From assembly GCA_012512505.1 (NCBI GenBank), contig JAAZEB010000080.1:1-60778 (forward strand): a DNA stretch of 60,778 bases. The letters run 5' to 3'. The stretch is from Armatimonadota bacterium. GTDB taxonomy: Bacteria > Armatimonadota > JAAZEB01. The position numbers and the translations under genes were made by a program. Below are positions 1,867 to 42,718 of the stretch, one piece after another (the stretch's first letter is position 1; each line of letters begins with the position of its first letter). Under the pieces are notes generated by a model. That model had not been told where the DNA came from. It saw only the letters and a list, made by a program, of their open reading frames with translations, and searched no databases.

Positions 1867-2910
1867 ATGGCGGAGGCGACCCTGAGCGAACGGATCAAAG
1901 TGGCGGCGCGTGCTCTGGGGTTCGAGTTGGTGGGCATCGCGCCGGCCGAGCCGGGCCCGCACGCGGCGTTCCTGGAGGAGTGGCTGGCCCGCGGTTACGC
2001 CGCCGGAATGGCCTACCTGGGCCGTGACCCGGAGAAGCGGCAAGACCCCCGGAAGGTCGTGCCGGACGCGCGCGCGGTGGTCGTCTGCGGCATGAGCTAC
2101 TACCCCGGCCCGGAGCCGGAGGGCACCGGGGCGGTGGGCCGGGGAATCGTGGCGCGCTACGCCCGCGGCAACGACTACCACGACGTGCTCGGCGAGAAGC
2201 TGCAGGCGCTGTTGGCATTTATCCAGGCCCAGGCGCCGGCGGGGGCAGCCGGCCGCGCCTACGTGGACACCGGGCCAGTGCTGGAGCGAGAGGTGGGCGC
2301 GCTGGCGGGCCTGGGGCAGTTTGGCAAGAACACCACCCTCATCAGCCGCGCCCTCGGCTCCTACTTCTTCCTGGGCGTGGTGATCACCACCCTCGCCCTG
2401 GAGCCCGACCCGCCGGCGTCCTGGAACCTCTGCGGGAGCTGCACCCGCTGTCTCGATGCCTGCCCCACCGGCGCCCTGCGCGCTCCCTATGAGCTGGACG
2501 CGCGCCTCTGCATCTCTTATCTGACTATCGAGCACCGGGGAAGCATCCCCCGGGAGCTGCGCGCCGCGATCGGGGATCGCGTTTTCGGCTGCGACATCTG
2601 CCAGGAGGTGTGCCCCTGGAACCGCCGCGCCCAACCGTGTCGCGAGCCAGCGTTGGCCCCCCGGCCGGAGGCGGAAGCGCCACTGCTGGCCGAACTGCTG
2701 GCACTGAGCCAGGAGGAGTTCTCCCGGCGCTTCCGGGGCAGCGCCGTGAAGCGGGCGAAGTGCCAGGGGCTGCGCCGCAACGCCGCCGTGGCGCTGGGCA
2801 ACACGCGCGACCCCGCCTACGCCCCGGTCCTCACCCGCGCGCTGGCCGACCCCGATCCGGTGATCCGCGAGCACGCTAGCTGGGCGCTGGAGCAGGTGGG
2901 CGGGGAGTAG
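1867..2910 (+). CDS. queG: tRNA epoxyqueuosine(34) reductase (B12- and 4Fe-4S-dependent)
   Basis: N-terminus MAEATLSERIKVAARALGFELVGIA. Two ferredoxin motifs are present: CGSCTRCLDACP and CDICQEVCPWN. It also has CISYLTIEHRG and a C-terminal HEAT-like DPDPVIREHASWAL. Confidence 0.9.
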   Translation: MAEATLSERIKVAARALGFELVGIAPAEPGPHAAFLEEWLARGYAAGMAYLGRDPEKRQDPRKVVPDARAVVVCGMSYYPGPEPEGTGAVGRGIVARYARGNDYHDVLGEKLQALLAFIQAQAPAGAAGRAYVDTGPVLEREVGALAGLGQFGKNTTLISRALGSYFFLGVVITTLALEPDPPASWNLCGSCTRCLDACPTGALRAPYELDARLCISYLTIEHRGSIPRELRAAIGDRVFGCDICQEVCPWNRRAQPCREPALAPRPEAEAPLLAELLALSQEEFSRRFRGSAVKRAKCQGLRRNAAVALGNTRDPAYAPVLTRALADPDPVIREHASWALEQVGGE

Positions 2911-3022
2911 ACCCCGGGCGCTCTCCCGCAGGCGGGCAGGAGGCGCCATGGCGTGAGACGGACCGCCGCACGGGCCTTTGTGCCGTTCAGCAATCCCCGC
3001 GCCGCCGCGGGAGGAAGGAAGC

Positions 3023-4003
3023 ATGCCAATGGGAATGAGCAGTCGCGAAGTGGTGATCCGCACGGTGAAGTTCGCGGGGCCAGACCGGCTGCCGCGCGAC
3101 TTCCCGGCGCCGTTCGGCTCCGACTTCGCCTGGGTGGGGCCAGACCCCTCGCCAGACGCCCGGCCGCGCAGTGGGCGCGACGAATGGGGCGCGCTGTGGC
3201 GCAACATTGGCGCCTCCGGCCTGGGCGAGGTGGCCGAGTTCCCCCTGACCGACTGGGCCGACTTCGCCACGCTGTCGATCCCGGACGTGCGCGACTCGCG
3301 GCGGTGGGGTGCCCTGGCCGGCGTGCGCGAGCGCGCGGGCAACCTGTTCCTGATGGGCGGCGGCTTCTCCCTCTACGAGCGCGTCCACTTCATCCGTGGC
3401 CTGGAGAACACCTGGGCCGACCTCTACGAGCACCCCGACGAACTGCGCCGCCTGCTGGAGGTGCTCGTCGACATGAACCTGGTCGCCATCGAGAAGTACG
3501 CCAGTGCGGGCGTGGATGGCCTCATGTTCTGCGACGACTGGGGCCTGCAGAACCGTCTGATGATCTCTCCCGAGAAGTGGCGCGAGTTCTGGAAACCGTG
3601 CTACGCCCGCGTTTGGGGCGCCGCCCACGAAGCCGGGATGCTCACCTTCCTCCATAGCTGCGGCTACATCACCGACATCCTGGACGACCTGATCGAGGCC
3701 GGCCTCGACGTGATCCAGATGGACCAGCAAGAGAACATGGGCCTGGAGCGCCTCTCCGAGGGCTGGGCCGGCCGCATCACCTTCTATTGCCCGGTGGACA
3801 TCCAGAAGACGATGTGCTATGGGTCACTCGACGAGATCCGGGCCTACTGCCGGAAGCTGGTGCGGTTCCTCGGCCGGCCAGAGGGGGGCTTCATCCCGAA
3901 GTGGTATGGCGACCCGGTCGGGGCCGGCCACCGTCAGGAAGCGATCAACGCCATGTGCGAGGAGTTCCTGCGGATCAGCGAGGAGCTCTATGGGCACAAG
4001 TGA
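3023..4003 (+). CDS. Uroporphyrinogen-decarboxylase (URO-D) family protein, MtaA/CmuA-like methyltransferase paralog
   Basis: ATG at 3023 follows GGAGGAAGGAAG. The peptide FCDDWGLQNRLMISPEKWREFWKPCY...FLHSCGYITDILDDLIEAGLDVIQMDQ matches the C-terminal barrel of URO-D family methyltransferases. Confidence 0.8.
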   Translation: MPMGMSSREVVIRTVKFAGPDRLPRDFPAPFGSDFAWVGPDPSPDARPRSGRDEWGALWRNIGASGLGEVAEFPLTDWADFATLSIPDVRDSRRWGALAGVRERAGNLFLMGGGFSLYERVHFIRGLENTWADLYEHPDELRRLLEVLVDMNLVAIEKYASAGVDGLMFCDDWGLQNRLMISPEKWREFWKPCYARVWGAAHEAGMLTFLHSCGYITDILDDLIEAGLDVIQMDQQENMGLERLSEGWAGRITFYCPVDIQKTMCYGSLDEIRAYCRKLVRFLGRPEGGFIPKWYGDPVGAGHRQEAINAMCEEFLRISEELYGHK

Positions 4004-4318
4004 TCCTCGTGGAAGGAGACGGATATAGCGAAGCTGGGTAAGGGCTGGCTTGTTTGGGCAGTGGTCGTGGCGACGTCAGCCTTGACGACGCTGCTATGCA
4101 ACATGATAATGCGAGCAACCCCCGCTACCGCACAGGCGCCGCCAACGGTGCCTGTCGCGGCGGCGATCAGCGCAGATGGCCACTTCGCCGTCATCGTCAA
4201 GCCGAATTCCTAAATGGTGCTCCGCCCATCATCAGATAACCCGCGAGACAGGGAGAATATGGCCTGGTGAGAACGCGGGGCGCCGACATGCGCGCGTTAC
4301 TGGCGGCGGAGGCACCCT

Positions 4319-5464
4319 TCAGTAGGCGCCGCATTCCTGCAGCGTTTCCCACATCGCGAGGAGGTTCTCGGGGGGCACGTCCGCCTGGATGTTGTGGACG
4401 GTGGTGAAGACGAAGCCGCCGCCGGGCGCCAGGTCGTCAATGCGCCGCCGCACCTCGTCGCGCACCTCCTGGGGCGTGCCGCGCGGCAGCACCCGCTGCG
4501 TGTCTACGCCTCCGCCCCAGAAGACCAGGTCGCGCCCGAACTCGCGCTTGAGGACGCGCGTGTCCATCCCCGCGGCGCTCACCTGCACCGGGTTCAGGAT
4601 ATCGACACCCACCTCGATCAGATCGGGCAGAATCTCGACGACGCTGCCGCACGTGTGGTAGAAGGTGTAGACGGGCGCCTGCTTCTTGATGTGGGAGAAG
4701 AGCGCCGCCTGCCGGGGCTTCACCATCTCCCGGTAGGCCTTCGGGTTCATCAGGAGGCACTGCTGCATCCCCAGGTCGTCGCCCTCCATGGCAATGTCGA
4801 CCAGGTCGCCCACCTCGGCGAGCGCGCGCTCCCAATAGCGCAGCTTCGTCTCCAGGACGAGATCGAGCACCGCCTCAGCCATCGGGCGGTCGGCGGCCAG
4901 GTCGGTGAAGAAGGTCTCGAAGCCGCGCAGCCACAGGCTCATCTCGGTGAGGCCAGCGCAGATGCCCCCCAGGACCACGGCGCACCCGCTGGCGCGGGCG
5001 GCCTCGGCGCGCTCCCTCAGCCCCACAAAACGCGCCGGGTCCTGCGGGTCGGGCCAGGGGAAGCGGCGGACCTCCTCGGGCGCGGCGGCATCGGCTAGAG
5101 GATGGCCGCACAAGTCGTAGTAGCGACGCTCCTCCTTCGGCATGCGCCGCGGCAAGCCCCACTGGTCGGTGTAGTAGTGGTAGCGCGCGTCCTCCTCGAT
5201 GCGGAGCTCCCAGCCCGAGGGGTTCCCGCTGGCAATGCCGCGCGTATCCACCCGGAGCGCCTGCAGCGCATCCTCGTCAACGACGGCAAGCTGCTGGGTG
5301 AGGTCGCTGATGGCCGGTTCGCGGGGCGGCAGGCCGAGCGCCAAGCGCAGGCGAGCGTAGGCGATGCGGTGGATGCCCGTCACCTTGGTGGAGCCAAGGT
5401 CGAACGGCACCCGGTCGGGTTCCCGGTGGCTCAACGCCGTCAGCACGCGGTCACGAGGGGTCAT
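4319..5464 (-). CDS. URO-D family protein, MtaA/CmuA-like methyltransferase paralog
   Basis: N-terminus MTPRDRVLTALSHREPDRVPFD, preceded by AGGAGGTGA. It contains YHTCGSVVEILPDLIEVGVDILNPVQ. It is the last gene of the minus-strand corrinoid cluster. Confidence 0.85.
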   Translation of the reverse strand: MTPRDRVLTALSHREPDRVPFDLGSTKVTGIHRIAYARLRLALGLPPREPAISDLTQQLAVVDEDALQALRVDTRGIASGNPSGWELRIEEDARYHYYTDQWGLPRRMPKEERRYYDLCGHPLADAAAPEEVRRFPWPDPQDPARFVGLRERAEAARASGCAVVLGGICAGLTEMSLWLRGFETFFTDLAADRPMAEAVLDLVLETKLRYWERALAEVGDLVDIAMEGDDLGMQQCLLMNPKAYREMVKPRQAALFSHIKKQAPVYTFYHTCGSVVEILPDLIEVGVDILNPVQVSAAGMDTRVLKREFGRDLVFWGGGVDTQRVLPRGTPQEVRDEVRRRIDDLAPGGGFVFTTVHNIQADVPPENLLAMWETLQECGAY

Positions 5465-5520
5465 CGGCTCACCTCCTGGGGCGTGAAGCGCAACGCGTGA
5501 TGCGCAAGACTGACGCCCGC

Positions 5521-5551
5521 TCTTCTCACGCGTTACGCGTTACTTCTCACG
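5521..5551. repeat. Nested short direct repeats: TTCTCACG x2 flanking ACGCGTT x2
   Basis: The sequence reads tcttctcacgcgttacgcgttacttctcacg. The heptamer acgcgtt occurs at 5528-5534 and 5535-5541. The octamer ttctcacg occurs at 5523-5530 and 5544-5551. The element spans the stop codon of the Fe-S gene and the leader of the next URO-D gene. Confidence 0.8.
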
Positions 5552-6431
5552 TCTCCTCGATGCCCATCCGCAGCAGGAGCCGGGAGTGGACGTGGGCGCG
5601 CAGGGCATCCAGGCCGAGGCGCTGCACCAGTGCCCCCAGGCGCTCGCGGGGCTGCCCGCGGTCGCGCAGGAAGGAGAGGATGCGCAGGGCAATGCCCGCG
5701 GCCTCGCGCTCCGGGAGGAAGCGGGCGAGGACCGTGCCGAACTGCGGCCGGCGCCCGCCGTGTCCCCCGACGTAGACGGTGTAACCAACGCGCCCGGGGC
5801 GCAGCGCGTGCAACTCACAGGCGGCGATGCAGGCGCCGCAGTTGTCGCAGCGCAGTGGATCGCGGCGCGGCAGCCCACGGCGCATCGTCAGCGCGCGCTC
5901 GTCGCAGATCCCGGCGCACCGGCCGCAGCCGTTGCAGGCCGCGCGGTCGAGCACCGGGTCCACGGTACCCACGAAGCCGATGTCAGCCAACTGCGGCGCC
6001 GTACACCCGCTGGAGCAGGCGGCGATCGCGATGCGCACCGGCGAGGGATACTCCTCGCCGCCCAGCAAGAGGTCCAGCATGCTGGCCAGGCCGCGGGCAT
6101 CCACAAAGCAATGGGCGCACTTCTCCTGGCCGGTGCAGACCACCACGTTTTGCGGGTGAGCGCCTGGGCTGCCGGTAGGCAGCCCGGCGGCGGTCAGCGT
6201 CTGCTGAAGGACGGGAAGGTCCCCAAAGCTCACCCCTGGGATCTCAACGCCCTGGCGAGCGGCAAGTTGCACGTAGCCCAGTCCATACTCCCGGGCAACT
6301 TCAGATAGGGTTAGAAGCTGGTCTGCGGAAAGCATCCCCGTTGGCGCGCGCAGCCTCACGGCGAAACGTTCTCGCCCCTGCTCGGCTGCGCCCTGCGGAA
6401 GCCCCACCGCCCGCTCCGGGGGCGCACTCAT
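5547..6431 (-). CDS. Small sulfite/nitrite-reductase-like hemoprotein with an inserted 2x[4Fe-4S] ferredoxin domain
   Basis: I chose the internal ATG at 6431 (MSAPPER), which is preceded by GAGGATGAGGG and lies 7 nt after the upstream stop. The siroheme/cluster motif C-x5-C (CTGQEKC) plus C-x3-C (CSSGC) is present. There are two CxxCxxCxxxC motifs (CNGCGRCAGIC and CDNCGACIAAC). The N-terminal FAVRLRAPTGMLSADQL resembles the NIR_SIR ferredoxin-like half-domain. Confidence 0.75.
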   Translation of the reverse strand: MSAPPERAVGLPQGAAEQGRERFAVRLRAPTGMLSADQLLTLSEVAREYGLGYVQLAARQGVEIPGVSFGDLPVLQQTLTAAGLPTGSPGAHPQNVVVCTGQEKCAHCFVDARGLASMLDLLLGGEEYPSPVRIAIAACSSGCTAPQLADIGFVGTVDPVLDRAACNGCGRCAGICDERALTMRRGLPRRDPLRCDNCGACIAACELHALRPGRVGYTVYVGGHGGRRPQFGTVLARFLPEREAAGIALRILSFLRDRGQPRERLGALVQRLGLDALRAHVHSRLLLRMGIEET

Positions 6432-6438
6432 ACCACCC

Positions 6439-7494
6439 TCATCCTCTCGCTCCGAACTCCTCCACGGCCTGGAAGAACGCCAGAATGTTCTCCCAAGGCA
6501 CATCCGGTTCCAACACGTGCGTCGGGGCAATCACAATGCCCGGCCAGAAGAGGTCTATCATCTCTCGCACGGTCTGGCGCACGTCCGCCGGGGTGCCAAA
6601 CGGCATCACCGTCTGCGTGCCGATGGTGCCCCAGAAAGCCAATCGGTCGCCATACCGCTCCTTCAACCAGCGCAGGTCGAGACACTCCGGCTGCACCGGG
6701 TTCAGCACGGTGACTCCCACCTCGATCAGGTCGTCGATGATGTCGACGATCTTGCCGTCGCTGTGGTACCACACCGGGATCTCCGGGCGCACGGCGCGCG
6801 CGGCGGCGATGACCCGGGCCAGCCGGGGCTTCAGGAAGCGGCGCCACTCGGCCGGCTTCATCATCAGCCGGTCCTGCATCCCCACGTCGTCGCCAACGCG
6901 CAGCATGTCGACGCCCGCCTCGGCGAACCGGCGAGCGCGGAAGGCGTTGTCTTCCGTGATACGATCCAGGACGCGCTCCACCAGGGCCGGGTTCAGCACC
7001 ATGTCCTCGAAGAACTTCTCGAAGCCGAGGATCTGCCACGCCAACTCGAAGATGTGTCCGGCAAAGCCATCCACGAAGAGACCGCGCGCGTGCAGGTCGG
7101 CCACCTGCTGTTCGAGGTGCGCGTGCCGGTAAGAGGGCCGCACGTCCGGCCATGGGTAGGCGTCCACCTCCTGCACCGAGGTGGCGTGGCGCAGCGGGAA
7201 GACGTAGCGGCTGAAGTGGTAGAAGTCACCGGGGATGTTGCCAGTGCCGTACTCGCCGATCGCGATCGGGCGGTCGCTCTGCAGGTCGGCGTAGTAAGCC
7301 TGGTAGTCCGGGTTCTCCTTGAGCGGGCCGAAGCCAACGCCTCGCGTCTCCATGCCGAAGTACTCGGCGGGATCCGAGGCGCCGGTCTCCTGGCGAAAAC
7401 GCTCGTACACCGCCGGCGTGAAGCCTGCCTCCTTCGGCACGCGATCCGGTGGCTGCCGGTTCACTGCCGCCAGCACTCGTTCCCTCGGGGTCAT
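6439..7494 (-). CDS. URO-D family protein, MtaA/CmuA-like methyltransferase paralog
   Basis: N-terminus MTPRERVLAAVNRQPPDRVP, preceded by GAGGAGG. It contains WYHSDGKIVDIIDDLIEVGVTVLNPVQPE. It starts 41 nt downstream of fhs. Confidence 0.85.
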   Translation of the reverse strand: MTPRERVLAAVNRQPPDRVPKEAGFTPAVYERFRQETGASDPAEYFGMETRGVGFGPLKENPDYQAYYADLQSDRPIAIGEYGTGNIPGDFYHFSRYVFPLRHATSVQEVDAYPWPDVRPSYRHAHLEQQVADLHARGLFVDGFAGHIFELAWQILGFEKFFEDMVLNPALVERVLDRITEDNAFRARRFAEAGVDMLRVGDDVGMQDRLMMKPAEWRRFLKPRLARVIAAARAVRPEIPVWYHSDGKIVDIIDDLIEVGVTVLNPVQPECLDLRWLKERYGDRLAFWGTIGTQTVMPFGTPADVRQTVREMIDLFWPGIVIAPTHVLEPDVPWENILAFFQAVEEFGARG

Positions 7495-7535
7495 CGCGGT
7501 TCCTCCTCAACACAAACGCACCGGTGGTGGCTCGC

Positions 7536-9203
7536 TCAGAACAGCCCTTCGATGTGCCAGTGGTCGTCCAGGTTGATGCGGGCGGCGGCCGGCTCCTTCG
7601 GCAGACCGGGCATGGTCAGGATGTTGCCCGCGTAGGCGACGAGGTAGCCGGCGCCGGCAAACACCTTCAGGTCACGGATCGTCACCTGGAACCCGGTGGG
7701 CCGACCGCGCAAGGTGGACTGATCGGAGAGCGAGTTCTGGGTTTTCGCCATGCAGATGGCCAGGTTGGCGTAGCCGTTCGCCTCGATCTCCCGCAGGCGC
7801 TTCTCAGCCTCGGCGGTGTAGACGACCCCCTCGGCACCGTACATGCGGGTGGCGATCATGGCGATCTTCTCTTTCACCGGCTGGTCGAGGTCGTAGAGCG
7901 GGCGGTAGTGGGTGGGCTGGTCCGACAGCTCCACCACCATCTCGGCCAGTTCGCGCCCGCCCTCACCGCCGCGCGCCCAGATGTCGGCCACGGCAAGCGG
8001 CACGCCACGGCGCTCCATCGCCGTAGCTACGGCGGCGATCTCTTCAGGGGAGTCGGTGGTGAAGCGGTTGAGCGCCACGCCCACCGGCAGCCCGAACGCC
8101 TGCATGTTCTCGACGTGCTTCTCCAGGTTCGGGATCCCCGCCTCCACGGCCGCCACGTCTGGCTCGGCGAGGGTGTTCAGCCCCTTGCCCGCCTGGTACT
8201 TCAGGGCGCGGATCGTGCCGCCGACCACCACCGCGTTCGGCGTCAGCCCGGCATGCCGGCACTTGATGTCCAGGAACTTCTCGGCGCCCAGGTCGGAGCC
8301 GAAGCCGGCCTCGGTGACCAGGAACTCGGCCAGTTGCAGCCCAAGGCGGGTGGCCTGAACGCTGCTCACTCCGGGGCCGACGTTGCCGAACGGCCCGGCA
8401 TGCACGAAGGCGGGCACCCCCTCAATCGTCTGCACCAGGTTCGGCTTGAACGCCTCACGCAGGGTTGCCATCATCGCGCCCGGTGCCTCAAGCGCCTGAG
8501 CAGTGACCGGCCGGCCGTCAGTGGTGTAGCCGACCACGATGCGCCCCAGGCGCACGCGCAGGTCCGGCAGGTCGCTCGCCAGGGCGAGGATCGCCATCAC
8601 CTCGGAGGCGGCGGTGATCTCGAACCCACCCTCGCGCGGCACACCGTTGCCCGGCCCGCCAAGGCCGAGGACGATGCTGCGCAGCGCGCGGTCGCACAGG
8701 TCCAACACCCGGGGGAAGACCATGCGGCGGGGATCGAGGCCAAGGGGGTTGCCCTGCTGCAGGTGGTTATCGGCGAGGGCGGCGAGGAGGTTGTGCGCCG
8801 TCGTCACGGCGTGGATGTCGCCGGTGAAGTGGAGGTTGATGTCCTCCATCGGCAGCACCTGCGAGTAGCCGCCGCCGGTGGCGCCGCCCTTGACGCCGAA
8901 GACGGGGCCCAGCGAGGGCTCGCGCAGCGCCACGCAGGCCCGCCGGCCCAGGCGGGCCAGGCCCTGCGCCAGGCCAATCGAGAGCGTGGTCTTCCCCTCG
9001 CCGGCGGGCGTGGGGGTCATCGCGGTCATCAGGATCAGCTTGCCGGCAGGGGCGCCCGCGCGCCGGGCGAGCGCCTCCGGCTTCACCTTCGCCTTGTAGT
9101 CGCCGTACTGTTCCAGTTCGTCCGGCCGCAAGCCCAGGCGCGAGGCCACTTCCGTGATCGGGAGCAGCGTCGCGGCCCGGGCGATGGAGAGATCGTCCGC
9201 CAT
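7536..9203 (-). CDS. fhs: Formate--tetrahydrofolate ligase
   Basis: The 555-aa protein has a PTPAGEGKTT P-loop, EPSLGPVFGVKGGATGGGY and FVHAGPFGN, all hallmark FTHFS motifs. Confidence 0.95.
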   Translation of the reverse strand: MADDLSIARAATLLPITEVASRLGLRPDELEQYGDYKAKVKPEALARRAGAPAGKLILMTAMTPTPAGEGKTTLSIGLAQGLARLGRRACVALREPSLGPVFGVKGGATGGGYSQVLPMEDINLHFTGDIHAVTTAHNLLAALADNHLQQGNPLGLDPRRMVFPRVLDLCDRALRSIVLGLGGPGNGVPREGGFEITAASEVMAILALASDLPDLRVRLGRIVVGYTTDGRPVTAQALEAPGAMMATLREAFKPNLVQTIEGVPAFVHAGPFGNVGPGVSSVQATRLGLQLAEFLVTEAGFGSDLGAEKFLDIKCRHAGLTPNAVVVGGTIRALKYQAGKGLNTLAEPDVAAVEAGIPNLEKHVENMQAFGLPVGVALNRFTTDSPEEIAAVATAMERRGVPLAVADIWARGGEGGRELAEMVVELSDQPTHYRPLYDLDQPVKEKIAMIATRMYGAEGVVYTAEAEKRLREIEANGYANLAICMAKTQNSLSDQSTLRGRPTGFQVTIRDLKVFAGAGYLVAYAGNILTMPGLPKEPAAARINLDDHWHIEGLF

Positions 9204-9219
9204 CGTCCTACTCCTACCG

Positions 9220-10029
9220 CTATTCCTGCCGCTGCTCCAGCTTCCCCTGGCGGGCCATGGCCAGATAGTTGGCGCAATACTCGTCGCGGCCCAGCAGCGC
9301 CTCCCCGGCGTAGAGGAGAGCCATCAGGGCCGGGTCGGTGGGGTCGGCGATCACGCAATCGAGGCCGGCGCCGAGGCAGAGCACCAGGAATGCCTGGTTG
9401 AGCAGCTTGCGGACCGGCAGCCCGTAGGAGACGTTGCTCAAGCCGCAGGTCGTGTGGACTCCGGGATAGGTGGCCCGCACGTAGCGGATCGTCTCCAGCA
9501 CTTGCTTCCCGGCTTCGCCGTTGGTGCTCACCGGGAAAACGAGCGGGTCGAGGTAGATGTCGTCCAGCGGCACGCCCGCCGCGGTCAGGTTGGTCACCAG
9601 GAAGTCGGCCGCCTGGGTGCGCGCCTCCAGCGTCTGCGGAATGCCGCGATCATCCAGGCAGAGGGCGACCACTTTGGCGCGGTACTGCTTTATCAGCGGC
9701 AGGATGCGGGCGAACTTCTCCCGCTCGGCGGTGATGGAGTTGATGAACGGTTGGCCCTGATGCACGGCCAGCGCGGCTTCCATCGCGCCGGGGTTCGGGC
9801 TGTCGATGGCGCAGGGGAGACCGGTAGCCTCCTGGCACGTCTGCACCAACCAGGCCAACGTCTCCGGCTCCGCCTCCACTCCCACGACGGCCCCGTTGCA
9901 GTCCAGGAAGTGGGCACCCGCCGCCGCCTGGGAGAGTGCCTCCTGGCGGATGAAGTCGGTGTCGTGAGCCTTAACCGCCGCTCCGATACTCTTCCGGGTG
10001 CTGTTGATCCGCTCTCCGATGATTAGCAT
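9220..10029 (-). CDS. Pterin-binding methyltetrahydrofolate:corrinoid methyltransferase (MT II; AcsE/MtvA/MtrH-like)
   Basis: It starts MLIIGERINSTRKSIGAAVKAHD, contains SITAEREKF and DPLVFPVSTN, and ends 16 nt before fhs. The fold is dihydropteroate-synthase-like. Confidence 0.85.
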   Translation of the reverse strand: MLIIGERINSTRKSIGAAVKAHDTDFIRQEALSQAAAGAHFLDCNGAVVGVEAEPETLAWLVQTCQEATGLPCAIDSPNPGAMEAALAVHQGQPFINSITAEREKFARILPLIKQYRAKVVALCLDDRGIPQTLEARTQAADFLVTNLTAAGVPLDDIYLDPLVFPVSTNGEAGKQVLETIRYVRATYPGVHTTCGLSNVSYGLPVRKLLNQAFLVLCLGAGLDCVIADPTDPALMALLYAGEALLGRDEYCANYLAMARQGKLEQRQE

Positions 10030-10143
10030 CGCGATCCCCCATGCCGTCGGTGGTTGGCGGCGCTTCAGGCGGCTCCGGGGCTAGCCGCCACGCTGCCAAC
10101 CGGACGGAACAGGTCTTTGCCAGGCAAGCCTGGCCGCAGTGAC

Positions 10144-10155
10144 CACACACACACA
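10144..10155. repeat. (CA)6 dinucleotide microsatellite
   Basis: cacacacacaca is read directly. It is intergenic, between the corrinoid-protein and MT II genes. Confidence 0.9.
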
Positions 10156-10161
10156 ACGAAT

Positions 10162-10216
10162 GGGAGAGCGGGAGAGGCAGAGGCTGGGGAGCATCTCCCC
10201 TTCCTCTCGCTCTCCC
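10162..10216 (-). terminator. Long GC-rich stem-loop: possible intra-operon terminator, attenuator or processing site
   Basis: gggagagcgggagagg (10162-10177) pairs with cctctcgctctccc (10203-10216). An inner stem ggggag-cat-ctcccc lies at 10186-10200. On the minus strand it follows the corrinoid-protein stop and is followed by a T/G-rich tract (ATTCGTTGTGTGTGTG). Confidence 0.4.
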
Positions 10217-10295
10217 ACCCTCCCATTCCGCGAGACGGCCGTGGGTCGTCTGCCAACCACCCCGCCGGGCGGCGGTGGCAGCAGACCCACGAATC

Positions 10296-10940
10296 TCAGG
10301 CAGTGATCCCGAGCAGCGCCTTGGCCGTATCGACAGCGCTCGCCGCGTCCGGGGCGTAGCCATCGGCGCCGATCTCGTCGGCGTAGGCCTGCGTGAGGGG
10401 GGCGCCGCCCACGATCACCTTGACCTGGTCGCGGTAGCCGGCCTCCTGGAGCGCGGCGATCGTCTCCTTCATCGCCGGCATGGTGGTGGTGAGCAGGGCC
10501 GACAGGCCGATCGCGCCCACGCCGCGCTCGCGCACCGCTTCCACGAAGGTGGCCGGGCTGACGTCAGTGCCCAGGTCGATCACCTCAAAGCCAGCGCCCT
10601 CGAGCATCATGCCGACGAGGTTCTTGCCGATGTCATGCAGGTCGCCCTGGACGGTGCCGATAGCAACCTTGCCGACCGGCTGGATGCCGGAGTCGGCGAT
10701 GAGCGGGCGCAGCTTCTCCATCGACTGCTTCATCGCGCGGGCGGCAATGAGCACCTCGGGGATGTAGAACTCATTGCACTTGAACTTCTGGCCCACGACC
10801 TGCATACCCGCGACCAGACCCTTGTTGATGATGTCGGCGACAGGTACTCCGGTGGCCAGTGCCTCGTCGGTCGTCTCTTTGGCCTTCTGCGCATTGCCTT
10901 CAATGACAAACTGCGCCAGGCTCTCCAGCAGGGACGGCAT
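10296..10940 (-). CDS. Cobalamin-binding corrinoid protein (MtaC/MtbC/MtvC-like)
   Basis: It has an N-terminal B12-binding_2 cap helix bundle. The DxHxxG motif is present in GDLHDIGKNLV. A Rossmann-like SALLTTTM...VIVGGAP follows. Confidence 0.9.
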   Translation of the reverse strand: MPSLLESLAQFVIEGNAQKAKETTDEALATGVPVADIINKGLVAGMQVVGQKFKCNEFYIPEVLIAARAMKQSMEKLRPLIADSGIQPVGKVAIGTVQGDLHDIGKNLVGMMLEGAGFEVIDLGTDVSPATFVEAVRERGVGAIGLSALLTTTMPAMKETIAALQEAGYRDQVKVIVGGAPLTQAYADEIGADGYAPDAASAVDTAKALLGITA

Positions 10941-11361
10941 AGTGTCTCCTCCTCCGATGAACAGAGCTTGGGCGCTCCGCCCGCCGTCGCGCGGCGGTGG
11001 TGCCGCTCTCCGTTATTCGGCCTCGCCCTCACTCTCTGCAGGTGCTATCCGGTTCGAGCCTACAAAGGCGGTTGCGCCGAAGCCAGCTCCCCGCAGGCAC
11101 CCTCAACCTCTGCATCTTTCGATTCCTGCCTGGCCGCTTCCTTTCCTTCCCCCGCCGGGGGAACTGTTCGGGCGCAAGGCAGGCGAGGCCCCCGGGGAAC
11201 AGAGAACGGGCCTTGGTTCCTGGCACTCACCGAACCGGAGCCGCTTCCCCCGGTTATTCGCCCAGGGAACTGCTATTCCTGGTGGGGCTTCCGAAGAGAG
11301 ATCCTCGATAAGCCGGTCGGGGTTTGCCGCCGCTTTCGGGGCCTTTGCGGCGGCGCCGCGA

Positions 11362-11673
11362 TCAGCGCGGGCGCAGCAGCACGTCGCGGAAGCAGAGCCG
11401 ATTGGGGTCCGCCTCGGGCCCGATCGCCTCTCTCGCCCAAAACTCTAGCACGTCCCGCAGTTGGGGTTCGTCTGCCAGACGGCCGCTGGCGAAGTGGCGC
11501 AGCGCCTCGTCGAAGCAGGCCAACCGGTAGAGCAAGCGTGCCAGGCATTCGGCCTGCCGCTGCTCATCCTGCGGACACTCCTGCAGGCGCTCTCCTTCCG
11601 GCGTCGGCTTCACCATCCGGCCGGAACATGCCCGACAAAGGCTCTCCCCTACCACTTCAGCCAAGGCTGCCAT
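11362..11673 (-). CDS. Hypothetical small Cys-containing protein
   Basis: An ATG at 11673 opens a frame of about 103 aa with genome-typical GC3 bias. It contains CRAC...C...C, which may bind metal. I recognise no family. Confidence 0.4.
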   Translation of the reverse strand: MAALAEVVGESLCRACSGRMVKPTPEGERLQECPQDEQRQAECLARLLYRLACFDEALRHFASGRLADEPQLRDVLEFWAREAIGPEADPNRLCFRDVLLRPR

Positions 11674-11960
11674 CGCGTCTTTTCCCTTCACACTCGTCGT
11701 TGGGGCCGGATCTCACCGAGTTCCGCGCCCATTGTAACGCGCTGCGAATCGCCAGTCCATCAGGAGATCGGCGGCTTTTTGGATCAGGGGTCTCCCTGAT
11801 CGAGGCAGGGCAGAACCCTTGACTGGCGCCTGCTCCTCGCGCGCCCCCGGGGCACCGATCCGCCCTCCTACGCCAGGTACGCGGTCGGATCGCCGGCGTC
11901 CCGCCGGCCCCCATAGGAGGCGTCCGACGCCGAGGGAGGTGTTCCTCCTCCAGGAGATGG

Positions 11961-12117
11961 CCGGAGTGCCCGAGCCATCGGGCTTCTGGGTCTGGGAAGC
12001 CGCATCGCTGCGGCGCTCCGTTGCTCTCCCAGGCAACTGACCGGAGTGCTCGAGCCATCGGGCCTCTGCCGGGCGGCCGCGTCGCCACGGCGCTCCGCTG
12101 CTCTCCCAGGCGACGGA
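11961..12117. repeat. Tandem duplication of a unit of about 80 nt
   Basis: Unit 1 (11961-12040) begins ccggagtgcccgagccatcgggcttctgg and ends cggcgctccgttgctctcccaggcaact. Unit 2 (12041-12117) begins ccggagtgctcgagccatcgggcctctgc and ends cggcgctccgctgctctcccaggcgacg. The two ends are conserved and the middle has diverged. Confidence 0.85.
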
Positions 12118-12162
12118 GCCCCTTTTCCATCCGCCCAGCGGGGACGCCTCCTACAAGGTGAA

Positions 12163-12891
12163 TCAGGGGAGGATGCGCACTGGGATGCCGACCGGCAGCA
12201 GCGCCAGCAGTTCCTCCATGTCGGCGTTGCGGAGGGCCACGCAGCCGGCGGTCCAGTCGCGGATACGCACGTACTTGCGGGCACCCCGGCGCACCACCTC
12301 ACCGATGCCCCCGCCGTGGATGAAGATGTTGCCGCCCAGGCGGGTGTGCTGGGGAGGCTTGGCCTGCCGAGCGCAGGCGGAGGCAATGCGCTGCTGCATG
12401 GTTGGGCTGATCAGCCCTTGCCGCAGGCCGCGCGCGGCGTCAGTCGGGTTCGGGTAGGAGACGCCGAGGGAGAGGTAGAACCGCGACTGCCAGTTCTTCC
12501 CCCACAGGTAGTAGGTCCCCTCGGGCGTCCGCCCGTCACCCCGCCGCTGCTTGGGGCCCTGGGGGTCGCGCCCCAGGGCGATGAAGTAGCCCTTCACCGG
12601 GATCCCGTCGCAGGTGACCACCATGCGGCGGCTGCTCTTCTTGACGGTGATGCCGAGGGCGCCCCGGCACGCTTCCCCCTGGCGCGCCCGGTGCGCGCGG
12701 AGGCACTCCGCCAGGGAGAGGCCCCAGGTGTTCCAGAAGCCGGAGACCAGCAAGCCCGGTGGCTTCGGCGGGGCATTCACTGGTGGTGGCGAGGGCGGCT
12801 CCGGCGCCAGCGGCGGTGACGGCCGCCGGCAACCACCCAGAGCCAGCAAGCCAAGCAGCAGCAGCAGGATGGGTCTCAAGTTCCAGCGCAT
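12163..12891 (-). CDS. L,D-transpeptidase (YkuD-fold) lipoprotein
   Basis: It has a signal peptide with lipobox LLALGGC, a proline-rich linker, and the catalytic region IFIHGGG...DWTAGCVALRN (His...Cys motif of L,D-transpeptidases). Confidence 0.8.
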   Translation of the reverse strand: MRWNLRPILLLLLGLLALGGCRRPSPPLAPEPPSPPPVNAPPKPPGLLVSGFWNTWGLSLAECLRAHRARQGEACRGALGITVKKSSRRMVVTCDGIPVKGYFIALGRDPQGPKQRRGDGRTPEGTYYLWGKNWQSRFYLSLGVSYPNPTDAARGLRQGLISPTMQQRIASACARQAKPPQHTRLGGNIFIHGGGIGEVVRRGARKYVRIRDWTAGCVALRNADMEELLALLPVGIPVRILP

Positions 12892-19926: not shown

Positions 19927-20024
19927 TGGCGGAGGCGTGTGAGAATCGAACTCACCCAGGACAGCTCTCGCTGCCCCGCACAGGGTTTGAAGCCCAGGCC
20001 CTTCACCAGAAGAGACCCGCCCCC
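19927..20024 (-). tRNA. selC: tRNA-Sec (anticodon UCA)
   Basis: The minus-strand 98-mer is GGGGGCGGGTCTCTTCTGGTGAAGGGCCTGGGCTTCAAACCCTGTGCGGGGCAGCGAGAGCTGTCCTGGGTGAGTTCGATTCTCACACGCCTCCGCCA. Acceptor GGGGGCG pairs with CGCCTCC (one G-U). The 6-bp D stem CTCTTC/GAAGGG with the 4-nt loop TGGT is the tRNA-Sec hallmark. The anticodon loop is CTTCAAA. The 7-bp variable arm is GGGCAGC-GAGA-GCTGTCC. The T arm is GTGAG-TTCGATT-CTCAC, followed by discriminator G and CCA. The weak point is the anticodon stem, which is GGG/CCC plus C-G with an internal U-U mismatch. Confidence 0.75.
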
Positions 20025-41602: not shown

Positions 41603-41665
41603 GGCGCCCCGCCGCAGGACGCGACCCGCCGGGCGGCGAACCTTCAGCGGCAGGGAGAGTGGAGG

Positions 41666-42718
41666 ATGACCTCAAAGGAACGGGTGTGGACGCTGCTTCA
41701 GGGAGAGCTGCCGGATCGCTGCCCCTACTTCGACCTGGTGCGCAACGACGCGGTGATCACGCATTTCGCCGGTGAAGCGCTGACGCTGGAGAACGCCCCC
41801 GAGGTAGTCTACCGTGCCGTTTCCCGCGCAGTGGACGCCACCCGGCCGGCGGTGCGGCTTCCGGATCGCGAGGGCGTGGAAGTGCTTCCCGACGGCCGGC
41901 AGATGCGCCGCTTCCGTTGGACCACCTGGATCGACAAGGTGCGCTTCGCGGACACGGAGGCGTTCGCGGCCTGGCTGCGGCAGGCGCTGGAAGCGCCGGT
42001 GGAATGGTCCGCCGCCGATGAGCGGAACGCGCAAGACACCCTGCGCACTTATGCCGATCTGGAAGCGCGCCTGGACGATGTCTTCCTGGTGTGGGGCAGC
42101 GTGTGCGGCGACCCGCTGACCGGCGTCTGCCACACGGTGGGCCTGGAGCAGTTCTCTTACTACCTGGCGGACTGCCCTGATCTGATCGCCGCCTACATCG
42201 AGCACGGGTTTGCCCGCGCGGAGACGCTGGCCCGGCACTTCCCCTTCCCGGCGCACGTGCGCGCCGTCTTCCTCGGCAGCGACATCGCCCTCAACACCGG
42301 GCCGATGTTCCGCCCGGCTTATCTGCGCCAGCACTACTTCCCCGGCATCCACCGCATCGTGGAGGCCTACCACGCCCGCGGTATCAAGGTGCTCTACCAT
42401 TCCGACGGCAACCTGATGCCGATTCTGGATGATCTGGCCGCCTGTGGCATCGATGCCCTGAACCCAATCGAAGTGATCTGCGGCATGGACATCCGGGAGA
42501 TCCACCGGCGCTACCCGCGCCTAGTGCTCGTCGGCGGCATCGACGTGAGTCAGTTGCTCCCGTTCGGCACCCCGCAGCAGGTGCGTGACGCCGTGGTGCG
42601 GGCAATCGAGGATGCCGAGGGGCGGATCATGGTCGGCTCTTCCACCGAACTACAGTACACCGTGCCGCTGGCCAACGCCCTGGCGATGATCGAGGCCGCC
42701 CACGCCTACCGCTACTGA
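41666..42718 (+). CDS. URO-D family protein, MtaA/CmuA-like methyltransferase paralog (fourth in the window)
   Basis: It opens MTSKERVWTLLQGELPDRCPYFD and contains YHSDGNLMPILDDLAACGIDALNPIEV. Confidence 0.85.
   Translation: MTSKERVWTLLQGELPDRCPYFDLVRNDAVITHFAGEALTLENAPEVVYRAVSRAVDATRPAVRLPDREGVEVLPDGRQMRRFRWTTWIDKVRFADTEAFAAWLRQALEAPVEWSAADERNAQDTLRTYADLEARLDDVFLVWGSVCGDPLTGVCHTVGLEQFSYYLADCPDLIAAYIEHGFARAETLARHFPFPAHVRAVFLGSDIALNTGPMFRPAYLRQHYFPGIHRIVEAYHARGIKVLYHSDGNLMPILDDLAACGIDALNPIEVICGMDIREIHRRYPRLVLVGGIDVSQLLPFGTPQQVRDAVVRAIEDAEGRIMVGSSTELQYTVPLANALAMIEAAHAYRY

Follow-up and report, generated by a model that had tools for sequence, protein, structure and literature searches.

The C-terminal half of the F420-dependent sulfite reductase Fsr (7NP8/7NPA) and the group IIId dissimilatory sulfite reductase (Dsr)-like proteins of methanogens share a domain order, in which a NIR_SIR_ferr half-domain is followed by a NIR_SIR domain with a CX5C...CX3C motif and an inserted 2x[4Fe-4S] ferredoxin domain. 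The same order is found in a sulfite reductase (SiR)-like protein of 294 amino acids (P0001), encoded at positions 5547..6431 (minus strand) of the 60,778 nucleotide stretch of DNA analysed here (the window), which is contig C361 of the Armatimonadota genome G000 (5.66 Mb, 97% complete). Unlike Fsr, this protein lacks the F420H2-oxidase (FrhB-like) N-terminal half and, unlike the methanogen proteins, which stand alone, it is bacterial and encoded within a corrinoid methyltransferase operon. The computational evidence on which all the readings below are based shows or strongly indicates that a protein of the SiR fold and of assimilatory ancestry became a fixed and selected part of this methyl-transfer operon, losing part of its oxyanion site.

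In MjFsr, Arg355, Arg423, Lys460 and Lys462 bind sulfite and Cys472 forms the bridge to the siroheme (PMC10229431). Dsr-like proteins (Dsr-LP), as classified by Susanti & Mukhopadhyay (2012), have three or four of four such Arg/Lys residues, with subgroups a to d defined by the missing one and the fourth residue always kept (PMC3448663), whereas the window protein has only two of the four and a second lineage of SiR-like proteins, described below, is without the fourth. The single ferredoxin cluster of this second lineage resembles that of the hypothetical 'group II' Dsr-LP. The FsrII of anaerobic methanotrophic archaea (ANME), which is without the second Arg, reduces nitrite and hydroxylamine instead of sulfite (PMC9295563), a precedent for the loss of a substrate residue that goes along with a change of substrate. 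The residues changed in this group II Fsr (FNiR, an F420-dependent nitrite reductase) are, however, different from those changed in the clade to which the window protein belongs, in which the third is lost, along with the second in the window copy, and FsrII is fused to an F420H2 oxidase and has no link to corrinoid genes. AsrC of the AsrABC system provides the best NCBIfam model (TIGR02912) and shares the group III architecture, but the SiR-like protein scores below its cut-off (96.9 bits; cut-off: 324.1), reaches no equivalog model in the NCBIfam scan and has no asrA or asrB gene beside it. The closest relatives outside the clade are uncharacterised small assimilatory SiRs (P0012, P0014, P0017, L019-L036) of the same length and with the same cluster motifs, at 33-47% identity. 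These keep the substrate residues R-R-K-K, H55, Y255 and a mostly acidic ferredoxin surface, and are encoded in sulfur-assimilation loci; the window clade differs in these respects.

Among described corrinoid gene clusters, those of Type 1 mlp encode a corrinoid protein, a RACE activase and several URO-D proteins akin to MtaA, but no tetrahydrofolate (H4folate) methyltransferase (Kountz & Balskus 2023; PMC10418091). The window operon resembles them in that URO-D proteins are encoded with a corrinoid protein, and its organism decodes selenocysteine. It differs in having a methyl-tetrahydrofolate (THF):corrinoid protein methyltransferase (MeTr) and no RACE, and in its constant URO-D protein, which lacks the third Cys of the His-Cys-Cys zinc site of the URO-D proteins Mlp2 and Mlp3. 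Some Type 1 mlp clusters adjoin sulfur-metabolism genes, including CysI, an assimilatory sulfite reductase (legend, PMC10418091), but CysI is not a small Dsr-like protein, as that of the window is. When compared with the reductive activases RACE, RACo and RamA, the SiR-like protein holds the operon position that RACo occupies in related Armatimonadota clusters, but shows no homology to them and has no ASKHA ATPase. A literature search returned no description of a SiR-like component in a corrinoid methyltransferase cluster, although such an absence is no proof.

Architecture of the SiR-like protein and its operon

The SiR-like open reading frame (ORF) starts with ATG, ends with TGA and encodes four cysteine motifs, namely CTGQEKC (C99-C105), CSSGC (C139-C143), CNGCGRCAGIC (C166-C176) and CDNCGACIAAC (C195-C205). 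The NIR_SIR_ferr half-domain spans residues 17-81 (6189..6383, minus strand; Pfam: 59.5 bits; cut-off: 24), and the NIR_SIR domain, which harbors the siroheme-[4Fe-4S] cysteines C99, C105, C139 and C143, spans residues 91-285 (5577..6161, minus strand; Pfam: 76.1 bits; cut-off: 27). Inserted into the latter is the 2x[4Fe-4S] ferredoxin domain (residues 157-212; 5796..5963, minus strand), with matches to Fer4 families over residues 159-210 and two CX2CX2CX3C motifs (C166/169/172/176 and C195/198/201/205) in which all eight cysteines are present. The CX5C...CX3C cysteines do not vary among the 17 homologs of alignment A1 or within the second lineage, and are kept in the close genomic homologs too, except that C105 is replaced by N in some rows.

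The closest solved structures are those of the C-terminal half of Fsr (7NPA/7NP8; E: ~1e-35), with which the protein shares ~30% identity over ~255 residues in an alignment that covers only Fsr residues 349-606. R26, in the NIR_SIR_ferr half-domain, corresponds by alignment to Fsr Arg355 and is invariant in the clade, and C143 stands at the place of Cys472, the bridging residue of MjFsr. Foldseek matched an AlphaFold2 model (mean pLDDT: 80) to Fsr first, then to DsrB/DsrA and then to SiRHP and NirA (E: 3e-21 to 1e-5), and by this model the protein is of the SiR fold rather than a plain polyferredoxin. It is thus predicted to comprise a siroheme-[4Fe-4S] module and an inserted two-cluster ferredoxin domain. 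A siroheme-bound state is plausible, given that the scaffold residues are conserved and that both siroheme synthesis genes sought in G000, ALAD and a SirC-like NAD_binding_7 gene, are present. The alternative that a siroheme-less genome provides another tetrapyrrole to this site is unsupported, as ALAD and a strong SirC-like match were found in all four genomes with SiR-linked clusters.

An earlier, sequence-only reading of the window had proposed an Fe-S protein of about 294 amino acids with the four cysteine motifs and had placed it among the small Dsr-like or low-molecular-weight SiRs. The intact ORF with all of its motifs, the scores of both Pfam domains, the group III Dsr-like architecture and the Fsr-C-like fold bear out this description. 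The same reading placed the start of the gene 7 nt after the stop codon of one URO-D gene, with another URO-D gene following, and took the product to be the only redox protein in the cluster. The gene coordinates agree with the former statement, and the latter holds for the operon proper, which consists of six minus-strand genes in the order corrinoid protein - MeTr - formate-tetrahydrofolate ligase (FTHFS) - URO-D - SiR-like - URO-D; QueG, a B12/Fe-S epoxyqueuosine reductase, is encoded just past it (1867-2910, plus strand).

The corrinoid protein gene (10296..10940; all operon genes on the minus strand) encodes B12-binding_2 and B12-binding Pfam domains, and is followed by the genes for the pterin-binding MeTr (9220..10029; NCBIfam PRK07535: 348.8 bits; cut-off: 259) and for FTHFS (7536..9203; Pfam FTHFS: 802.9 bits). 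The upstream URO-D-family gene (6439..7494; 351 amino acids; Pfam URO-D: 101 bits) ends with a TGA codon at 6439-6441, and the SiR-like ATG follows at 6431, preceded by GAGG. The downstream URO-D-family methyltransferase-like gene (4319..5464; 381 amino acids; Pfam URO-D: 78.8 bits) starts at 5464, 82 nt past the SiR-like stop codon and behind AGGAGG. Of the metal ligands, the downstream protein keeps H-x-C and has Gly in place of the third Cys, and the upstream protein has, by eye, H-S-D where MtaA has H-x-C. The operon contains no RACo gene and no asrA or asrB beside the SiR-like gene, nor does it contain genes for an adenylyl-sulfate (APS) or phosphoadenylyl-sulfate (PAPS) reductase, TusA or CysO/ThiS-type proteins.

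A consensus scan of positions 4000-11500 of the minus strand revealed no promoter-like or terminator-like site, and the 420-nt leader 5′ of the corrinoid protein gene yielded no Rfam riboswitch at gathering thresholds, a permissive scan of 10900-12200 returning chance-level matches only. The spacer between the SiR-like and downstream URO-D genes (5465-5546, minus strand) contains a 13-bp stem on ACGCGT repeats (AACGCGUGA...UCACGCGUU), with a minimum free energy of -35.5 kcal/mol (z-score of -2.0 against shuffled sequences) and no T-run after it, and could be a processing or regulatory hairpin.

Ancestry, synteny and the substrate site

Close orthologs of the SiR-like protein were found, in a survey of 401 Armatimonadota genomes, only in the window's own family (G001, 52% identity; G017, 60% identity). 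Some 20 other Armatimonadota genomes harbor homologs at 29-37% identity, with a PAPS reductase, TusA, ThiS-PALP, ThiF or JAB gene no more than 1.5 kb away in 15 of the 20 loci. The genes of more distant homologs (33-42% identity) likewise have ThiS, ThiF, TusA, cysteine-synthase-type and PAPS-reductase genes for neighbours. The operon-linked proteins group together in a maximum-likelihood tree, as a single clade (support: 100/100) on a long stem. Its sister, P0012, is 47% identical, has the residue set RRKK and is encoded by a gene that overlaps a TusA gene, and the next outgroup (P0013/P0014) is found in a locus of ThiS/ThiF/TusA/PALP genes. Because sister and outgroup lie in TusA and ThiS/ThiF loci, and because a group IIId Dsr-LP is, on genetic evidence, a working sulfite reductase in Methanococcus maripaludis (10.1101/2024.03.05.583561), the ancestor of the operon clade was very probably a small assimilatory sulfite reductase of the 'SiR-TusA' type.

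All clade loci with enough flanking sequence are situated in the corrinoid operon, and a metagenome scan added members of the same clades only. Besides the window, these are the G001-type contigs (L003/L015/L049/L055/L059), with the order corrinoid protein - MeTr - FTHFS - SiR-like - URO-D; G017/L004 and L005, with corrinoid protein - MeTr - SiR-like - URO-D; and L133, with corrinoid protein - MeTr - URO-D - SiR-like - URO-D. The corrinoid protein, MeTr, SiR-like and downstream URO-D genes therefore constitute the constant core, to which FTHFS and the upstream URO-D are variable additions. FTHFS is gone from three of the five distinct locus versions (G017, L005 and L133) and present in the G001-type loci. 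The upstream URO-D is present in L133, absent in G001 and represented in G017 by a 56 amino acid remnant (L004 5557-5787, between the MeTr and SiR-like genes), which points to its recent loss in one lineage. Orthologs of the downstream URO-D, 82-84% identical, lie directly 3′ of the SiR-like gene in every clade locus, and the SiR-like gene overlaps the next gene by 4 nt in L003 and is separated from it by an 11-nt gap in L005. This context is kept across the clade at SiR-like identities of only 46-63%.

By alignment with 7NP8, MjFsr Arg355/Arg423/Lys460/Lys462/Cys472 correspond to positions 26/94/131/133/143 of the SiR-like protein. Positions 26/94/131/133 are R/R/K/K in Fsr and in 26 assimilatory-context homologs. 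Among the eleven clade members, position 26 is R, position 94 is R in nine (Q in the window protein and S in P0010), position 131 is Q, P or V and position 133 is K or R. The Lys460 equivalent is thus lost in 11/11 clade members and kept in 26/26 assimilatory-context homologs, and the Arg423 equivalent is additionally lost in the window protein and P0010. H55 and Y255, near-invariant in the assimilatory set, are also lost in the clade. Three of the four anion-binding residues remain in most clade members (IIIc-like) and two in the window protein (R26 and R133), which has Q94 in place of Arg423 and P131 in place of Lys460. Of the 118 nearest 50%-identity cluster representatives, as placed in a mafft --add alignment, 94 have R-R-K-K and four R-R-K-N, and the pattern of the clade was found in none outside it. 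We take R-R-K-N to be the pattern of plant NirA-type nitrite reductases. Metagenomic small NIR_SIR proteins with other deviant substrate sets, including R-D-N-T, K-D-N-K and Q-L-R-Q, and with intact cluster cysteines were also observed (P0041, P0046, P0047, P0051, P0074, P0084, P0127 and P0150).

The possibility that the protein is an ordinary small sulfite reductase, serving assimilation or detoxification from within an operon to whose methyltransferases it has no functional tie, draws on the assimilatory nature of its relatives, on the presence of siroheme synthesis genes, on the retained fourth substrate residue, which has been termed universally conserved (PMC3448663), and on a genome scan in which the window gene was the sole NIR_SIR gene of the 97% complete genome. 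Set against these are the invariance in assimilatory homologs of a lysine that the whole clade has lost, the further loss of the Arg423 equivalent from the window copy, and a genome with no TusA match in the genome scan and no convincing CysH or other PAPS/APS reductase, the sole PAPS_reduct match (46 bits) being an SGGKDS PP-loop protein. Furthermore, G017 carries a second SiR-like gene with the complete residue set and a TusA gene directly after it, such that the operon type and the SiR-TusA type coexist and are not redundant, and the operon context is retained, with tight coupling of the genes, despite extensive divergence of the SiR-like protein. We consider this explanation unlikely. The earlier claim of a non-ordinary SiR tied to corrinoid genes is upheld by the synteny of the clade, the lost sulfite-binding residues, the assimilatory-type copy of G017 and the second lineage.

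The substrate site has changed, but clade members retain all four cysteines of the siroheme cluster, together with most of the scaffold. The ferredoxin cysteines are likewise invariant, apart from C169, for which P0010 and P0011 have another residue. Conservation within the clade is highest in the ferredoxin insert (mean identity: 67%, against 40% in the assimilatory set), which bears a conserved, clade-specific basic patch (R163, R184, R185 and R189; motif MRRGLPRRD) at positions that are mostly Glu, Asp or Val in assimilatory homologs. This turn to a basic surface suggests a new docking partner for the ferredoxin domain. The protein as a whole has diverged faster than its operon neighbours, with between-genome identities of 52-60% against 77-89%, a dN ~3x that of the neighbours and a dN/dS of 0.22-0.36 against 0.08-0.25 (0.28 for a 97%-identical pair). 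Selection on the SiR-like gene is purifying but relaxed.

Such rapid divergence, together with the variable pocket residues, would also be expected of a non-catalytic protein with a structural or regulatory role, acting perhaps as a redox sensor or, in the manner of DsrB, as a siroheme subunit that does not catalyse, or of a relic under weak selection. The reading frame is, however, intact in every locus, the dN/dS values remain low, even for the near-identical pair, the siroheme-cluster and nearly all ferredoxin cysteines and many scaffold residues are invariant, and the basic patch is both specific to the clade and conserved, which makes non-catalytic function or decay improbable.

RACo activases and a second SiR-like lineage

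The corrinoid-protein lineage of the window operon is present in 220 of the 401 Armatimonadota genomes, nearly all of which lack a SiR-like partner for it. In 20 comparison loci from other Armatimonadota families (L108-L127; ~20 kb each) no MeTr or SiR-like gene was found nearby, and in 14 of these the orthologous corrinoid protein is encoded directly adjacent to RACo. The sequence-only reading had placed the SiR-like gene where an activase is normally encoded, and these loci, together with the lack of RACo in the window cluster, agree with that placement. The RACo - corrinoid protein pair is conserved across many families, usually with no methyltransferase gene within 10 kb. Two irregularities in these data proved to be artefacts: the '1 TAG' inside many corrinoid-protein matches corresponds to the genes' own stop codons at the alignment ends, and the '1703-aa RACo' of G017 to a high-GC open frame 5′ of a normal gene.

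A second type of SiR-linked cluster was identified in G087, a genome of another family (56% GC), where a 277 amino acid SiR-like protein is encoded among corrinoid and URO-D genes. Relatives at 46-92% identity to this protein keep the cluster, with MtaB added. Members of the lineage were located in L046 (2642-3472, minus strand), L050 (8871-9725), L051 and L053. The cluster runs, after MtaB where that is present, URO-D-B12 fusion - corrinoid protein - URO-D - aldo/keto-reductase-Fe-S - SiR-like - URO-D - URO-D, and the SiR-like protein of this lineage always adjoins the aldo/keto-reductase-4Fe-4S protein inside MtaB/URO-D/corrinoid clusters. Its siroheme-cluster cysteines are kept, but the 'additional' [4Fe-4S] site is lost, leaving one ferredoxin cluster, and the four substrate positions are occupied by N or R / D or E / Y, H, R or P / S or G, such that three to four of the four residues are lost. 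The placement of this lineage in the tree is uncertain, given its long branch. The corrinoid protein belongs to the same lineage as that of the window (~65% identity), but in the URO-D tree, which contains many deep subfamilies, the URO-D partners fall in subfamilies other than those of the window. The idea that a SiR-like/URO-D pair was inherited as a unit across both cluster types was rejected on these grounds. A related cluster in G036 has the order MtaB - UROD-B12 - corrinoid protein - RACo - three URO-D, in which RACo stands in place of the aldo/keto-reductase-Fe-S and SiR-like proteins of the second type.

All four genomes with SiR-linked clusters encode RACo elsewhere, and as such the idea that RACo is absent from genomes with the SiR-like gene was rejected. 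The RACo of G087 is the sister or ortholog of the corrinoid-protein-adjacent RACo of G036 and is merely unlinked, and that of the window's family is divergent and ~120 amino acids shorter, with its [2Fe-2S] cysteines kept. In G000 there are two RACo-type activases (PF14574), on contigs C347 and C137 (13595-15316), away from the window cluster; one adjoins an AcsC-like corrinoid Fe-S protein and a homocysteine S-methyltransferase, and the other is an orphan by genes that appear by eye to be unrelated.

The arrangement of these clusters raises the possibility that the SiR-like protein is an electron-input module, which passes low-potential electrons to the corrinoid protein, either directly or via the unlinked RACo, and so keeps its cobalt in the Co(I) state; in clusters of the second type, the aldo/keto-reductase-Fe-S protein encoded next to it would share in this task. 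Such a module corresponds to the activator or electron entry point of the sequence-only reading. Several features are in keeping with this. The window operon has the classic make-up of a first methyltransferase (MT1), a corrinoid protein and a second methyltransferase (MT2), with a redox protein at the usual place of the activase, and the orthologous corrinoid proteins of other families, most of which adjoin RACo, are never accompanied by a SiR-like gene in the loci compared. The exchange of RACo in G036 for the aldo/keto-reductase-Fe-S and SiR-like pair occurs at the matching place, the ferredoxin insert is the part of the protein that is best conserved and has switched to a basic surface, and the RACo of the family is both divergent and short.

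Other features speak against an electron-input role. For corrinoid proteins of this kind, the Co(II)/Co(I) potential is ~-530 mV, and it takes an activase with ATP to bring it up to -250 mV (PMC6739815), while the SiR-like protein has no ATPase module, neither an ASKHA domain nor a PF14574 match being found in the Pfam scan. RACo-type activases are kept in every cluster-bearing genome, almost none of the 220 genomes with this corrinoid-protein lineage pairs it with a SiR-like protein, and a plain electron carrier would have no evident need for the siroheme-cluster cysteines and scaffold residues that are retained. An electron donor is favoured by the variability of the pocket and by the occurrence of one corrinoid-protein lineage with differing URO-D partners, and disfavoured by the retained siroheme site, the retained RACo and the thermodynamics. 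We regard such a role as a tentative and rather doubtful proposition. The earlier suggestion of a new kind of corrinoid reductive activator is weakened by the RACo genes elsewhere in the genomes and by the missing ATPase module. In the same measure it is conceivable, if doubtful, that in at least one event, and perhaps in two, siroheme/Fe-S proteins of the SiR fold became redox partners of a new class for corrinoid methyltransferase systems, feeding the corrinoid protein alone or via RACo from the place that the ATP-dependent activase takes in related operons.

The inventory of G000 further comprises ~40 members of the URO-D family, a MetH-like ORF, two corrinoid proteins that stand alone and, as its sole stand-alone MeTr, that of the operon. 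On C347 (9322-14497, minus strand) an AcsC-like corrinoid Fe-S protein, RACo and a stand-alone homocysteine S-methyltransferase are encoded in series, which looks like a methionine synthase taking its methyl group from the corrinoid Fe-S protein. The second corrinoid protein of the genome is encoded on C304 (7188-9131, plus strand), and after it come a URO-D protein, whose HICGH and PGCEI motifs appear by eye to form a full thiol-type zinc site, and then a HEAT-repeat protein. A split methionine synthase, made up of the corrinoid protein, MeTr and URO-D of the window with the SiR-like protein supplying sulfide, was considered and dropped in view of the MetH-like pterin/B12 ORF on C33, of the homocysteine S-methyltransferase encoded with AcsC and RACo on C347 and of the URO-D partner, which is without a full thiol-type zinc site. 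Within the window, further URO-D paralogs are found at 2978-4003 and 41603-42715 (both plus strand). A tRNA-Sec gene is also present (19931-20024, minus strand; Rfam: 72.3 bits), so that the organism decodes selenocysteine, and genes interrupted by TGA may be split in standard ORF calls.

Candidate roles in methyl transfer

The best reading of these data is that the SiR-like protein represents a re-purposed siroheme/Fe-S redox component of a methyl-transfer operon, and neither a housekeeping SiR nor a RACE-type activase. Since it was captured into the operon and part of its sulfite-binding site was lost, it probably performs a new redox task in B12-dependent methyl transfer. As to what that task may be, we lean towards a siroheme reductase still at work, either as an electron sink or in the protection of Co(I), with a small N- or S-oxy compound of lesser negative charge for its substrate, although we would put this at somewhat below an even chance. 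The protein would form a homodimer, as does Fsr-C, and low-potential electrons would enter via the ferredoxin insert with its basic surface, and the peripheral cluster would relay them to the cluster coupled to siroheme. Their acceptor, in a distal pocket that is less cationic than that of true sulfite reductases, would be a small N- or S-oxy compound, for which the candidates are one resembling nitrite or hydroxylamine or, with low efficiency, sulfite. The operon could benefit by gaining an electron sink for methyl-group oxidation, or by the shielding of its Co(I) and methyl-Co chemistry from such oxidants. Siroheme binding, dimer formation, the direction of electron flow and the substrate are all elements of this scheme that we infer.

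Several points weigh against the reductase just outlined. The sequence by itself names no candidate substrate. The pocket varies within the clade, R94 being lost in 2/11 members and position 131 being Q, P or V, a pattern more suggestive of relaxed constraint than of a binding site that has been tuned anew, and such a poorly constrained pocket would suit the electron-input role. That the two cluster types share a corrinoid-protein lineage and not URO-D subfamilies suggests an association with the corrinoid protein and not with a given methyl substrate or product, and would again suit an electron donor. In addition, the clade is confined to one family, and the sample is narrow, comprising that family and a handful of metagenome contigs from groundwater and, by unverified sample names, anaerobic digesters, such that the conserved synteny could in part reflect recent common descent.

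A bolder proposal is that the URO-D protein demethylates a methanesulfonate- or nitromethane-like compound and that the SiR-like protein reduces the sulfite or nitrite set free. The adjacency of the genes in one operon with MeTr and FTHFS would fit such a leaving-group reductase, as would the three of four anion-binding residues kept in most clade members and the lack of any other sulfite-making route found in the genome. By arithmetic the stoichiometry would balance, as CH3SO3- + H+ -> CO2 + H2S + H2O. However, only two of the four residues remain in the window copy and no more than one in the second lineage, whose pocket contains an acidic residue and which is encoded beside MtaB, a methanol enzyme, and FTHFS is missing from most of the distinct locus versions. 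The literature search found no such methyltransferase, and to our knowledge none is known for methyl-S or methyl-N oxy-compounds of this kind. We consider the proposal very improbable. Its extension, in which oxidation of the methyl group via THF to formate yields the six electrons for an internally balanced fermentation, is as remote, and so too is the boldest sub-case, that the operon ferments a methyl-sulfonate or methyl-nitro compound whose released oxyanion the SiR-like protein reduces.

Of the interpretation offered by the sequence-only reading, the tie to corrinoid genes and the non-ordinary nature of the SiR have stood, and its two specific proposals, a reductive activator and the handling of a methylated sulfur or nitrogen oxyanion substrate, are possible but unproven. 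The second is weakened, as was the first, here by the partial set of oxyanion residues in the window copy and the still smaller one of the second lineage with its MtaB neighbour.

For the annotation of such genomes, a gene of this kind that is labelled 'anaerobic sulfite reductase subunit C' or '4Fe-4S binding protein' provides no basis for inferring sulfite metabolism. The Armatimonadota are understudied, and a corrinoid-protein lineage is widespread among them, with many URO-D paralogs in the window genome as well. Dsr-like siroheme proteins are treated as sulfite or nitrite reductases, but the clade described here and the second lineage have left sulfur assimilation, dismantling the oxyanion site. 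Two lineages fixed in B12-dependent methyl-transfer operons represent a testable case of a new role for the siroheme fold. If the SiR-like protein does feed or guard cobalt, this would bear on how corrinoid proteins are supplied with electrons and protected, which is poorly known in uncultured anaerobes.

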